From a virus: a stretch of 64,000 nucleotides of DNA. The stretch is taken from positions 1-64,000 of IMG/VR virus record IMGVR_UViG_3300042868_010462. One strand, 5' to 3'. Under the pieces are notes generated by a model. That model did not search any database. It had not been told where the DNA came from and worked only from the letters and a program-made list of their open reading frames with translations. Below, one piece after another: positions 13,620 to 20,918 of this stretch; position 1 is the stretch's first letter; the number at the start of each line of letters is the position of its first letter. Made by a program: the position numbers and the translations under genes.

Positions 13620-13648
13620 AATAAATACTTTGATACGAAGTATTTATT
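13620..13648. promoter_or_regulatory. back-to-back TATTTAT elements (11-bp perfect inverted repeat) between divergent operons
   Basis: AATAAATACTT-TGATACG-AAGTATTTATT between the starts at 13609 (-) and 13663 (+). Confidence 0.65.
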
Positions 13649-16289: not shown

Positions 16290-16351
16290 AGAGGGTAATA
16301 CTTTCCTTTTGACATAACGTTTATATTTATATAATATAAAATATATTGATT

Positions 16352-17110
16352 ATGGACATTGAAACTGAAAAATTTATAATAGAGGAATATAAAAAAGGGT
16401 TGGGTTCTGTAATGATTTCACGTAAAGTGGGGTTATCTAAACCTACGATATTAGCTGTAATAAAAAAACACAAACTAACGAGGTATAAAGATAGATGTAA
16501 ATGTTTAAAAATAAAAGAAGTTGGTGACAAATTTACATTATCATGGACGTGTAAGATGTGTAAAAACGAATTCCAAAAAACCTCGAAAAATAAATCCGTA
16601 TTGTGTCGTAATTATTACAACTCAATAAAAAAAAGTAGTAATTGTAAATCTTGTAGTTTATTATTACAGAGAGGTAAAGGAAATCCTTTTTATGGGAAAA
16701 AACATAGTAAACAAACACTCGATTTAATTTCCAAAAAAATATCTGAAAATCCACCAAAACAAAGTTGTGTGTCTAAATTGGAAAAAAAATTGTTGAGTGA
16801 AATTAAAAATAGGGGAATAGATGCTAAAGGAACTGTGTCTATTGATAGATTTATATGTGATATTTTTATTGAAAAATACAATTTAATTATTGAATTTTAT
16901 GGTGATTATTGGCATTGTAATCCCAAAAAATATAAATCTGATTATTTTCACCCGCACAAAAAAAAGACAGCAAAAGAAATATGGGACGAGGATAAACTAA
17001 GAATTGATTATTTGAAAAAAATGGGTTATAATTTAGAAGTTATCTGGGAACGTGAATTCTCAGATGATAAAAAATTAAACAAAATTATTAAAAAATATGT
17101 CAAAAATTAG
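16352..17110 (+). CDS. free-standing homing endonuclease, Vsr/EDxHD(DUF559)-like, with HTH, Zn-binding and NUMOD3 modules
   Basis: N-terminal HTH, CKMC/CKSC, GKGNPFYGKKHS (NUMOD3) and CDIF..IIEFYGDYWH..EDKLR..GYNLEVIWE. ATG at 16352 preferred over the track start. Confidence 0.8.
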   Translation: MDIETEKFIIEEYKKGLGSVMISRKVGLSKPTILAVIKKHKLTRYKDRCKCLKIKEVGDKFTLSWTCKMCKNEFQKTSKNKSVLCRNYYNSIKKSSNCKSCSLLLQRGKGNPFYGKKHSKQTLDLISKKISENPPKQSCVSKLEKKLLSEIKNRGIDAKGTVSIDRFICDIFIEKYNLIIEFYGDYWHCNPKKYKSDYFHPHKKKTAKEIWDEDKLRIDYLKKMGYNLEVIWEREFSDDKKLNKIIKKYVKN

Positions 17111-18317: not shown

Positions 18318-19031
18318 ATGTTAATCAAACAACCAATTACTAAGATTTTATTTATGGACATTGAAACAGTTGGGGGTTGTCCCAACTATGATGTGTGTTC
18401 TAATTTAAACCCATCTGTGGCTGACCAATTTGACAAATATTTTGATTGGTTCTTGAAAAGGTTTCCTGAAGATAACGAAATTAAAGAAGACCAAAAAAAT
18501 ATTGTATTTTCAAGTAGAGCTGGTTTAGTTCCTGAATTTGCAAAAATTATTTGTGTTAGTTTTGCATTTGTTTTAGATGATGGGTCTGTTAGAAAACAAA
18601 CATTTTCAAATGATAATGAACATCAATTGTTGAAAGATGTTCAAGGTTTATTAAACAAATGTGCAAAGTTAGATTTTTGGTTGTGTGGACATAATTTGAA
18701 AAACTTTGATATCCCAATGTTGGCAAAACGTATGATTATTAATGGATTGATGCCTCCGGCACTTCTTCCATCATATGATACAAAACCTTGGGAAATCAAA
18801 GCAATTGATACCAAAGAAATTTGGCAATATGGGGCATATTCTTCAATTGGGTCACTCGATTTATTATGTTCTACTATGGATATACCAACTCCAAAGGATG
18901 GTGAGGTAAAAGGTGATAAAGTTCACTCAGAATATTGGGAAAAACAAAACATCAAGGGTATTAGTGAATATTGTGAAAAAGATGTTGATGTCTTAATTCA
19001 AATAATTAAAAAGTTAAAAGAACTCAGATAA
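18318..19031 (+). CDS. 3'-5' exonuclease (PolB-exonuclease-like, DEDDy)
   Basis: ExoI DIET, ExoII GHNLKNFDIP and ExoIII EYCEKDV. Confidence 0.85.
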   Translation: MLIKQPITKILFMDIETVGGCPNYDVCSNLNPSVADQFDKYFDWFLKRFPEDNEIKEDQKNIVFSSRAGLVPEFAKIICVSFAFVLDDGSVRKQTFSNDNEHQLLKDVQGLLNKCAKLDFWLCGHNLKNFDIPMLAKRMIINGLMPPALLPSYDTKPWEIKAIDTKEIWQYGAYSSIGSLDLLCSTMDIPTPKDGEVKGDKVHSEYWEKQNIKGISEYCEKDVDVLIQIIKKLKELR

Positions 19032-19708
19032 TGCAAGGAAATATGAAAGATTTGTTTAAACAAGTCGATGATTTACAAAATTATTTAAAAGGAAAGGAAG
19101 ATGAAATAGATTACAATATTATCTATGAAACTTATGGAGTTGACATTAAACAACTAGAACAAGAAATGTTGAATTATGTCCCCAAACAAATACTTGGTTA
19201 CACTAAACTTAATCCCGATGCTATTGACCCTAGTTACAATTATATAAGTGACTCAGGCTTTGACTTGTACTCAACAGAAGAAATTGTTGTAAACCCATTA
19301 GGTAGAGCTTTAATACCAACAGGATTGGCCTTTGACATCAAAGATGGTTATGAAATACAAGTAAGGTCAAAAAGTGGTTTAGCAATAAATCAGGGTTTAT
19401 TTGTATTAAATTCACCAGGAACTGTGGATTGTTTTTCTGAAGATATGAAAATTTTAACTATAAATGGTGAAAAACATATTAAGGATTTAAAAATAAATGA
19501 TATAGTATTTTCATTCAATGAAAAAAGTTTAGAAATTGAAAAAGATATTGTTCTTAAAATTTTTGACACTAATGTACAAGATATATTGAAAATTGAGACT
19601 GAAGAAGGTGTACTTGAGGTAACCCCCAATTCAGAAATTTATACAAATAAAGGGATTGTTTTGGCCAAAGATTTACAAGAAAATGATGAGATAATTGTAT
19701 TTTTTTAA
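19031..19708 (+). CDS. dut: dUTPase N-terminal half fused to split intein N-fragment
   Basis: dUTPase motifs DSGFDL, IPTGL, QVRSKSGLA and NSPGTVD, then intein block A CFSEDMKILTING; the ORF ends after the IntN part. Confidence 0.88.
   Translation: MQGNMKDLFKQVDDLQNYLKGKEDEIDYNIIYETYGVDIKQLEQEMLNYVPKQILGYTKLNPDAIDPSYNYISDSGFDLYSTEEIVVNPLGRALIPTGLAFDIKDGYEIQVRSKSGLAINQGLFVLNSPGTVDCFSEDMKILTINGEKHIKDLKINDIVFSFNEKSLEIEKDIVLKIFDTNVQDILKIETEEGVLEVTPNSEIYTNKGIVLAKDLQENDEIIVFF
19430..19705 (+). mobile_element. split intein N-fragment (92 aa)
   Basis: Cys1 at 19430. CFSEDMKILT..KHIKDLKINDIV..LEVTPNSEIYT.KG...AKDLQENDEI are HINT-fold N blocks. Confidence 0.85.
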
Positions 19709-19741
19709 CCAAGATACTATTTATCAATAAAGATAATAAGT

Positions 19742-20635
19742 ATGTCAGTAAAATGTAAAATTTGTGGGATTGAAAAACAATATTCAATTGTTGAACATTT
19801 AAAATTTGAACATAAATTAACCTCAAAAGAATACAAAGAGTTATATCCAGGTAATTTAGTTAAATCAAAAGAATATGCAACAATATTTTCAGAGAAACAA
19901 AAAACTAAATGGAGTGATACTGAATATAAACAAAAAATGACAAAATCTAGACAAGTATCCCATAATAAATCTGAATTCAAAAATAAAATGTCTAATATTA
20001 TAAAAAAGAGACATAAAGAAACACCCGAAATCTATTCAGGTTTTACCAATTGGCATAAAAGTGAAAAATTTAAAGAGTGGGTCAAATCTGAAGATAGAAT
20101 AAAAAAAATATCAAAAACATCAAAAGAAAGATGGGAAAATGAGGAGTATAGACAAAAAACAATCAAATCAATCGTAAAAGTGTTGGGTGATGGTAGATGT
20201 GAAAAAGGAAAAGAGTTTAGGGAAAATATGTCAAAAATTATTTCTGAATTATATAGTACAGGTAAATTAAGTAATACAAGTAACAAATATAAAACAGGAA
20301 AATATGAATCAAAGGAAAATGAAACCTTTTTATATTCATCCTCATATGAATTGGAAACTATGATTTTTTTTGACTCAGTTAATTTTATAAAAAGATGGAC
20401 GAACAAACATGGTATTCGAATAAGATATTTTTATAATGGACTACACAGAAACTATGTTCCTGATTTTTACATTGAATTAGCCAATGGTAAAATCTTTTTA
20501 ATTGAACTAAAGGGGTGGGAAACTGAGGAAGTATTAGTAAAACAACAATTTGCATTAAAAGAATACCCAAACTATAAATTGTTTTACTCAGTTGAAGAAC
20601 TAAAAAATTTTATATATGAAAACAACGAAGATTAA
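19742..20635 (+). CDS. putative homing endonuclease, TnsA-like PD-(D/E)xK, with N-terminal C2H2 zinc finger
   Basis: CKICG..EHLKFEH, a K-rich helical middle, and YSSSYE..RYFY..RNYVPDFYI..LIELKG. Confidence 0.75.
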   Translation: MSVKCKICGIEKQYSIVEHLKFEHKLTSKEYKELYPGNLVKSKEYATIFSEKQKTKWSDTEYKQKMTKSRQVSHNKSEFKNKMSNIIKKRHKETPEIYSGFTNWHKSEKFKEWVKSEDRIKKISKTSKERWENEEYRQKTIKSIVKVLGDGRCEKGKEFRENMSKIISELYSTGKLSNTSNKYKTGKYESKENETFLYSSSYELETMIFFDSVNFIKRWTNKHGIRIRYFYNGLHRNYVPDFYIELANGKIFLIELKGWETEEVLVKQQFALKEYPNYKLFYSVEELKNFIYENNED

Positions 20636-20723
20636 AAAAATAACATCAGAAAAAAAACAAACTTATGATATAACAGTAAGTAATAATCATAACTTCTTTT
20701 GTAATAGTCATTTGATACATAAT
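20616..20723 (+). mobile_element. split intein C-fragment (36 aa)
   Basis: Block F YDITV..HNFF and block G IHN ending at 20723; the +1 residue is Cys (TGC 20724). Confidence 0.87.
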
Positions 20724-20918
20724 TGCGGTTATTTGGGTGAAGTAAAAGTTATAATATTTAATACGAATTCAGACCAAGTAACAATAAAAAAAGGAATGAA
20801 AATTGCACAAGCAGTTTTATGTCCAGTAATAAACGGAAAATATGTTGATTTGGAACTAAAGAAAGATTTAGGTCAAAAAGACAGAGGTGATAACGGATTT
20901 GGCTCAACAGGAATATGA
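20616..20918 (+). CDS. dut: split intein C-fragment fused to dUTPase C-terminal half
   Basis: MKTTKIKKI..TYDITVSNNHNFFCNSHLIHN|C, then GYLGEVKV, KIAQAV and the motif-5 DRGDNGFGSTG. Confidence 0.88.
   Translation: MKTTKIKKITSEKKQTYDITVSNNHNFFCNSHLIHNCGYLGEVKVIIFNTNSDQVTIKKGMKIAQAVLCPVINGKYVDLELKKDLGQKDRGDNGFGSTGI

Follow-up and report, generated by a model that had tools for sequence, protein, structure and literature searches.

The 64,000-nucleotide (nt) stretch analysed here, referred to below as the window, comprises positions 1 to 64,000 of the IMG/VR virus record IMGVR_UViG_3300042868_010462. At 19031–20918 it carries a dUTPase gene (dut) in two separate pieces, with an intein half attached to each piece and a nuclease gene between them. 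In our view this is very probably a genuine case of a fractured gene: a mobile element of 1,294 nt resides in a phage dUTPase gene, trans-splicing of the split intein restores the enzyme, and the nuclease most likely serves the homing of the element. A preliminary description made from the sequence alone had proposed that the dUTPase is fractured, its halves flanking a nuclease gene and being joined through a natural split intein. This proposal is now backed by intein-less alleles, 21 loci with the same gene order, purifying selection, repeated gains or losses of the element, and a structural model of the two intein halves in complex.

The interrupted dUTPase gene and its intein-less alleles

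Three open reading frames (ORFs) on the plus strand form the locus. The N-gene (19031–19708, 225 amino acids, aa) encodes a dUTPase N-extein of 133 aa (19031–19429) followed by the N-terminal intein half, IntN, of 92 aa and a stop codon (19430–19708), whose first residue, Cys1, is encoded at 19430. After a 33-nt spacer (19709–19741) comes the gene of a free-standing putative homing endonuclease (19742–20635, 297 aa). The start codon of the C-gene (20616–20918, 100 aa) lies inside the end of the nuclease gene, with an overlap of 20 nt. The C-gene encodes the C-terminal intein half, IntC, of 36 aa (20616–20723), which ends with HN at 20723, and a dUTPase C-extein of 64 aa with its stop codon (20724–20918). 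The gene boundaries and lengths given in the preliminary description, including the position of Cys1, the end of IntC and the overlap, were all reproduced when rechecked.

Both exteins match the Pfam dUTPase family PF00692, the N-extein at positions 4–63 and the C-extein at positions 71–129. In the N-extein, an N-terminal extension of about 55 aa that is specific to the clade precedes motifs 1 and 2 and the first part of motif 3, through its conserved Asp (NSPGTVD). The C-extein (CGYLGEV...GFGSTGI) starts with the +1 residue, Cys, and holds the remainder of motif 3 (CGYLGEV), motif 4 (KIAQAV) and motif 5 (RGDNGFGSTG). The five motifs of trimeric dUTPases, among them the Asp of motif 3 and the GFGSTG arm at the C-terminus, thus all occur in the proper order and are divided 2.5 to 2.5 between the genes. 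In the PHROG dUTPase profile, one half reaches position 226 and the other begins at position 228. Since solved dUTPases align through GTVD in the N-gene (PDB 8hrv, E-value 2.4e-19, GTVD on GTVD) and from GYLGEV onward in the C-gene (E-values down to 3.9e-10), the alignments place the gene break directly after the conserved Asp of motif 3, which we take to be the catalytic Asp, equivalent to Asp90 of Escherichia coli Dut. Judged by these profile matches, such an anatomy, with adjacent stretches of one dUTPase profile on either side of an intein, is far beyond chance.

A search of 5.8 billion proteins retrieved dUTPases of 197 aa with the same N-terminal part and an unbroken motif 3 (GTVD-S-GYLGEV). 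The length of 197 aa predicted earlier for the spliced product is matched by these uninterrupted proteins (P0056 and P0061). In P0056 the N-extein is identical to that of the window, and three of the 64 residues of the C-extein differ, including Ser in place of Cys+1. At the DNA level, three intein-less contigs (L081, L084, L085) are 97.4–98.9% identical to the window upstream of 19430 and 96.4–97.4% identical over the 192 nt that follow 20723. This near-identity on both flanks indicates that the alleles differ by one clean insert of 1,294 nt (19430–20723) and in the +1 codon, which is AGT (Ser) without the insert and TGC (Cys) in the window. The intein-less insertion site in L081 reads CCAGGAACTGTGGAT before the insertion point and AGTGGTTATTTGGGT after it. 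The C-extein of L081 is 97.4% identical to that of the window in nucleotide sequence, and all five differences lie within 51 nt of the insertion point; the closest upstream difference is 117 nt away. Such clustering could reflect a short co-conversion tract or changes in the nuclease target, the numbers being too small to decide.

The arrangement is common in metagenomes and not a one-off. Among the viral contigs of IMG/VR, 21 loci have the same three-gene layout and 59 carry an uninterrupted dut. About 95 of the best 120 clusters (90% identity) retrieved with the N-gene consist of proteins of approximately 225 aa in which an N-half is followed by IntN. The element is exactly 1,294 nt long in three alleles whose exteins differ by 22–38% in protein sequence. 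When the joined exteins (40 distinct rows) are placed in a maximum-likelihood tree, split alleles fall in four separate positions among intein-free alleles, and well-supported branches force at least four gains or losses, in 200 of 200 bootstrap trees. Relatives of the nuclease less than 50% identical to it (P0189, P0190, P0193, P0205) again sit between genes for dUTPase-IntN and IntC-dUTPase. A divergent fractured allele at L089:171–794 has an N-half 34% identical to that of the window, and another (L087:1383–1568) is considered below together with its +1 residue. At L004:523–2246 an apparently decaying copy of the element was found, in which the nuclease is shortened to 277 aa by a 20-aa internal deletion and the C-extein is reduced to about 20 residues.

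No one-piece form, either a contiguous mini-intein or an in-frame nuclease, was seen among longer proteins or the best 120 matches of near length, in a search that relies on shared words and is weak for this purpose. The sole candidate for such a form (P0337, 401 aa, JGI) turned out to be a dUTPase–glycosyltransferase protein, produced either by real fusion of the two adjacent genes or by an error of gene calling. The arrangement was not found in GenBank phage isolates, where tblastn with the N-gene returned no record covering 80% of it and blastn yielded just short dUTPase matches. The 148-kb record to which the window belongs contained neither a further copy of the nuclease nor another intein.

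The ratio of nonsynonymous to synonymous substitution rates (dN/dS, Nei–Gojobori method) is 0.11–0.22 for the core of the N-extein, IntN, the nuclease, IntC and the C-extein, consistent with purifying selection on all five segments. It is about 0.19 for the nuclease, in alleles 61–78% identical, and about 0.17–0.22 for the exteins of split alleles. These values are rough, since dS is saturated (>1), and this weakens the argument from selection. The dN of the intein halves and the nuclease is below that of the exteins, which is suggestive of a shared mobile element, though no proof. We set aside the excess identity of the intein and nuclease as proof of recent transfer because of the same saturation.

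These observations bear on the view that the dUTPase is dead, the element having broken a dispensable gene whose halves now persist as decaying remnants. The enzyme is not essential in all phages, and the L004 allele, with its truncated C-extein and its deletion in the nuclease, is what such a view would predict. It accounts poorly for the constraint on the exteins of split alleles and the retention of all five motifs in them, for an element size held at 1,294 nt in diverged alleles, and for reading frames that are intact in 20 of the 21 loci. We regard it as very improbable.

Intein halves and the prospects for splicing

IntN opens with the invariant sequence CFSEDMKILT, and its Cys1 is conserved in all 21 sequences compared. 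In IntC, blocks F (YDITVSNNHNFF) and G (HLIHN) are intact, and D18 and H25 of block F as well as H35 and N36 of block G are invariant among the relatives. IntC is the most conserved segment of the locus, with a mean amino acid identity of 82%. It matches the Pfam model Intein_splicing at positions 121–155, exceeds the curated cut-off of the NCBIfam model intein_Cterm (19.1 vs 15.6 bits) and has weak matches in PDB to the split inteins gp41-1 (E-value 0.006) and NrdJ-1 (E-value 0.01). The features of a class 1 intein are therefore present as regards the Cys at position 1, the Asp and His of block F, the His-Asn of block G and the +1 nucleophile; the exception is block B, where TPNS stands in place of TxxH. 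The net charge is −10 for IntN and +4 for IntC. The acidic and basic character ascribed to the halves in the preliminary description is thus correct, while the comparison with fast split inteins made there is unsupported, the block B His being absent.

The residue at position +1 is Cys in all eight distinct split alleles. None of the 32 distinct alleles that are free of the intein has Cys there; they carry Asn or Ser. This strict association is expected only if the +1 nucleophile is used, and it argues for real splicing. The invariance of Cys1 and of the block F and G residues, and the continued purifying selection on the exteins, also speak in favour of splicing. The divergent fractured allele L087 has Ser at +1.

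We modelled the complex of IntN (with five extein residues) and IntC (with six). Its score was 0.73, compared with 0.00 for the best control, and it passed a mark reached by 58 of 80 solved complexes and two of 110 mismatched pairs. Three runs shared at least 90% of the contacts, and the predicted local distance difference test score (pLDDT) of the partner was at least 77. Split inteins have already been solved and the IntN–IntC pair resembles them, so this result shows likeness to known split inteins and is not proof of binding.

Several observations weigh against splicing. The block B His is the most conserved residue of inteins and normally activates the N-terminal scissile bond. In the present family block B keeps its Thr but not its His: the window has Ser at that position, and each of the relatives has Ser or Thr, down to the 34%-identical allele L089, where the block reads TPTT. 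Four alignments, with Spl DnaX, NrdJ-1, a DnaB intein and a BIL domain, agree in placing Ser opposite the block B His. The matches of IntN to N-terminal intein models (Hint, PT-HINT and intein_Nterm) are all below the curated cut-offs. The success of the complex model, too, may reflect memory of solved split inteins. Finally, the inteins of fractured genes published so far all retain this His (PMC2677866).

The missing His throughout the family and the sub-threshold IntN matches are also the main grounds for supposing that the intein halves merely hold the dUTPase fragments together without splicing, as a non-covalent assembly device akin to mobile-element leftovers in other fragmented phage enzymes. 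A precedent of this kind is documented for a phage NrdA that is split by a mobile element and assembles non-covalently (PMC3045599). Against such a view, Cys1, the terminal His-Asn and the Asp and His of block F are invariant, and the distribution of Cys+1 between split and free alleles makes little sense if the +1 nucleophile goes unused. Moreover, every subunit of the trimeric active site would keep about 128 intein residues next to its catalytic Asp, which would probably block catalysis. Natural inteins without the block B His form a very small subset, but splicing does occur in it: the orthologs of Tko CDC21-1 among them are reported to splice by a compensatory mechanism (PMC6333167). Taken together, this makes a purely non-covalent role improbable, if somewhat less so than a dead enzyme.

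We infer that splicing occurs despite the missing His. Speculatively, its loss may be compensated by an additional His of block G that is itself invariant (H32 of IntC). Under trans-splicing, the two dUTPase halves would be translated separately, and the acidic IntN and basic IntC would associate. A class 1 reaction employing Cys1, the terminal Asn and Cys+1 would then join the exteins into a dUTPase of 197 aa that has Cys where intein-less alleles have Asn or Ser.

The nuclease and the mobility of the element

The protein encoded at 19742–20635 was characterised by an alignment of nine diverged sequences, an AlphaFold2 (AF2) model and fold comparisons. It comprises an N-terminal C2H2 zinc finger, a helical repeat region (approximately residues 40–180) and a PD-(D/E)xK nuclease core (approximately residues 185–297). 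The zinc finger (CxxC...H....H; C5, C8, H19, H24) is invariant in the alignment, and four of the nine members have weak matches to the Pfam family ROS/MucR (ROS_MUCR). The helical region contains about five repeats that resemble NUMOD3 by eye; Pfam detected no NUMOD3 in it. In the C-terminal domain, E203, D241 (within PDF), E255 and K257 are invariant and correspond, from the alignment, to the canonical PD-(D/E)xK signature.

The C-terminal domain is modelled with pLDDT 82–95. The best Foldseek match of the core is TnsA (E-value 1.1e-3, probability 1.00). TnsA is likewise first in an exhaustive VIA search (Z 8.6, root-mean-square deviation 3.1 Å over 105 residues, residues 181–287 of the model on 40–168 of TnsA), followed by VRR-NUC (Z 7.8), Bax1 (7.6), I-Bth0305I (5.5), Hjc (5.4), Vsr (4.9) and I-Ssp6803I (4.3). 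Sub-threshold Pfam matches to TnsA_N (PF08722) occur in seven of the nine members (best E-value 1e-3) and to DUF1064 in six. No member has a Pfam match to GIY-YIG or Vsr at E-value 1 or below, and the nuclease profile had no meaningful match among PDB sequences. The fold match is modest and, like the sub-threshold Pfam matches, leaves the case for a TnsA-like core weaker. No match to TnsA_C was found, and nothing follows the nuclease core, which runs to the last residue, 297. The label TnsA-like given in the preliminary description therefore holds for the fold, through the top match in two aligners and the weak TnsA_N matches, and fails for identity with TnsA, whose C-terminal domain is lacking.

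A profile search of 1.84 billion representatives yielded 1,774 related clusters at E-values of at most 1e-3. One relative (P0213, L090:2501–3379, 292 aa, with a precomputed PF08722 match) stands alone on a 29-kb contig, directly upstream of an SbcCD-like gene (Metallophos and SMC_N), as is expected for a family of free-standing homing endonucleases.

The spacer upstream of the nuclease gene contains the block ATACTATTTATCAATAAAGATA (19714–19735), which includes TATTTAT (19718–19724). The block is nearly invariant across nine distinct spacers, though synonymous sites of the coding regions are saturated. In the window, TATTTAT is located 8–35 nt upstream of 14 ORF starts, mostly of virion genes, the expected frequency being 1.6% (binomial P ~9e-16), and some of the ORFs preceded by it adjoin the portal and head genes. 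By analogy with TATAAATA of T4, TATTTAT is probably the late-type promoter motif of this phage. Its recurrence, together with the conservation of the block, suggests that the nuclease gene carries its own copy of a promoter-like motif. Scans for sigma-70 promoters and terminators gave no more sites than in shuffled sequence. Since the C-gene starts before the nuclease gene has ended, the nuclease and the C-half may be expressed together. TATTTAT occurs on both strands of the window, for instance at 13641, 46623, 62756, 58956, 57464, 52069, 7618 and 2237.

The nuclease most likely acts as a homing endonuclease. The mobile element would then be composed of IntN, the spacer with the promoter-like motif, the nuclease gene and IntC, inserted directly after the catalytic Asp of motif 3. 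Its presumed target would be the intein-less dut allele, which would be cut during co-infection, and repair would copy the element in. Alternatively, the nuclease may no longer home and may have another role or be a passenger, and the patchy distribution would then stem from precise losses or from recombination of whole dut alleles. Because synonymous sites are saturated, the element cannot be shown to be younger than its host gene, and the phage genomes compared here are mosaic, the identity to L081 dropping to 78% just after dut; both facts leave room for this explanation. It is harder to reconcile with the invariance of the putative catalytic residues and the low dN/dS of the nuclease across its diverged alleles, with a conserved promoter-like motif of the nuclease gene's own, and with the existence of near-identical alleles that have and lack the element. 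In addition, each precise loss would need a reversion of Cys+1 to Asn or Ser. We consider the loss of homing unlikely, yet the least unlikely of the three alternatives weighed here.

Relation to known systems and genomic context

Fractured genes were described for gp41, NrdA, NrdJ, IMPDH, DnaE, DNA ligase and terminase (Dassa et al. 2009, PMC2677866). As in those genes, all parts of the dut locus lie on one strand in the order host N-part with IntN, short non-coding spacer, free-standing endonuclease gene, and IntC with host C-part, the last two genes sometimes overlapping. The spacer (33 nt, compared with 27–51 nt) and the halves (92 aa for IntN and 36 aa for IntC, compared with 88–105 and 33–54 aa) are within the published sizes. 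Shared features also include apparent control elements of the endonuclease gene, opposite charges of the halves, phage origin, and a host enzyme of DNA precursor metabolism. The differences are three. None of the eight host types published is a dUTPase; the nucleases reported from fractured genes are of the GIY-YIG or Vsr-like kind, while the one studied here has a canonical PD-(D/E)xK core of TnsA-like fold and a C2H2 zinc finger; and the published split inteins have all five catalytic residues including the block B His, which the dUTPase family lacks.

The closest solved relatives of IntC are gp41-1 (PDB 6qaz) and NrdJ-1 (PDB 8ubs), which share the canonical split site with it at marginal similarity; NrdJ-1 also aligns across block B of IntN. 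Both keep TxxH, gp41-1 has Ser at +1, and fast splicing was shown for these two. Inteins of the Tko CDC21-1 type (PMC6333167) likewise naturally lack the block B His. They are contiguous archaeal inteins of CDC21/MCM with a bulky Leu at −1, whereas the dUTPase intein is split, comes from a phage and has Asp at −1.

With TnsA, the endonuclease of Tn7 (PDB 1f1z, 1t0f), the nuclease core shares the E...D...xK pattern, and the aligned part of TnsA is its catalytic domain. Unlike TnsA, the phage protein carries a zinc finger at its N-terminus along with helical repeats and lacks the C-terminal TnsA domain, the sequence identity is 13%, and the flanking genes are dUTPase halves, not transposon genes. 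I-Bth0305I and its Vsr-like relatives (EDxHD) and I-Ssp6803I (PD-(D/E)xK) have the same restriction-endonuclease-like fold and are used in homing, with lower fold scores than TnsA. These enzymes and the present nuclease also have a modular layout in common, in which the N-terminal part binds DNA and the C-terminal part is catalytic. According to a survey of 2025, the endonucleases associated with inteins are of the LAGLIDADG, HNH, GIY-YIG, VSR-like and endonuclease VII-like types.

In the literature searched for split inteins or inteins with dUTPase, and for TnsA-like or DUF1064 proteins with inteins or homing, the arrangement was not described, and dUTPase is absent from two surveys of inteins; the search did not extend to subscription-only papers or to intein databases. 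Within that scope, the combination of a dUTPase host with a TnsA-like partner, suggested earlier as new, has survived. New relative to this literature are dUTPase as the host, the kind of nuclease and a family of split inteins that lacks the block B His; the organisation itself is that of an established fractured gene.

Protein ligation relies mainly on natural split inteins, of which just a few families have been characterised. The dUTPase family is abundant and diverse, offering dozens of diverged IntN/IntC pairs, and its distance from gp41-1 and NrdJ-1 makes orthogonality to them plausible. Lacking the His usually regarded as central to the first splicing step, it is a natural test case for alternative catalysis of that step. 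With the nuclease, the few types of homing endonuclease on record would be joined by a TnsA-like PD-(D/E)xK enzyme, whose many diverged alleles, along with empty target sites, are material for studies of target recognition. dUTPase, invaded at the catalytic Asp, joins the conserved sites of nucleotide metabolism that homing elements have colonised, and the locus is a well-sampled case of element presence and absence in wild phage populations. A bolder possibility, which we put forward tentatively and hold at somewhat less than even chances, is that the intein is the first recognised member of a large undescribed family that trans-splices without the block B His through another activation of the N-terminal junction. 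Its nuclease partner would then represent a further class of homing endonucleases, defined by a TnsA-like PD-(D/E)xK core and a C2H2 zinc finger, and the promoter-like motif might tie the assembly of active dUTPase to the timing of C-half expression.

The window is part of a viral record of 147,874 bp with an estimated completeness of about 50%, and its G+C content is low (25–33%). It encodes a T4-type major capsid protein (Pfam Gp23, E-value 1.9e-73) and a portal protein. The closest capsid proteins of GenBank phages, from uncultured huge phages, Microcystis phage Mel-JY01 and Flavobacterium ‘immuto’ phages, are just 41–46% identical. These matches, at such low identity, point to an uncultured T4-like lineage as the source.

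Downstream of dut, from 20915 on (L081:905 on), the DNA identity falls from 97–99% to about 78% and then to 68%. The fall begins at the glycosyltransferase gene that follows dut and marks a mosaic boundary in the glycosyltransferase cluster. A recombination boundary exactly at the intein site, as blastn would have it (98.7% identity upstream and 78% downstream), was rejected after a base-by-base check, which places the fall at the glycosyltransferase gene.

Directly 5' of dut, at 18318–19031 on the plus strand, lies a gene for a PolB-type 3'–5' exonuclease-like protein (DNA_pol_B_exo2, E-value 5e-13). Its stop codon overlaps the dut start, and the same arrangement is kept in the intein-less contigs. 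Further upstream, at 16346–17110 on the plus strand, a second free-standing putative homing endonuclease of 254 aa is encoded, with NUMOD3 and a Vsr-like/REase_MTES_1575 domain. It is of the Vsr-like type described for fractured genes, yet it lies outside any intein, and TATTTAT is found 22 nt upstream of it.

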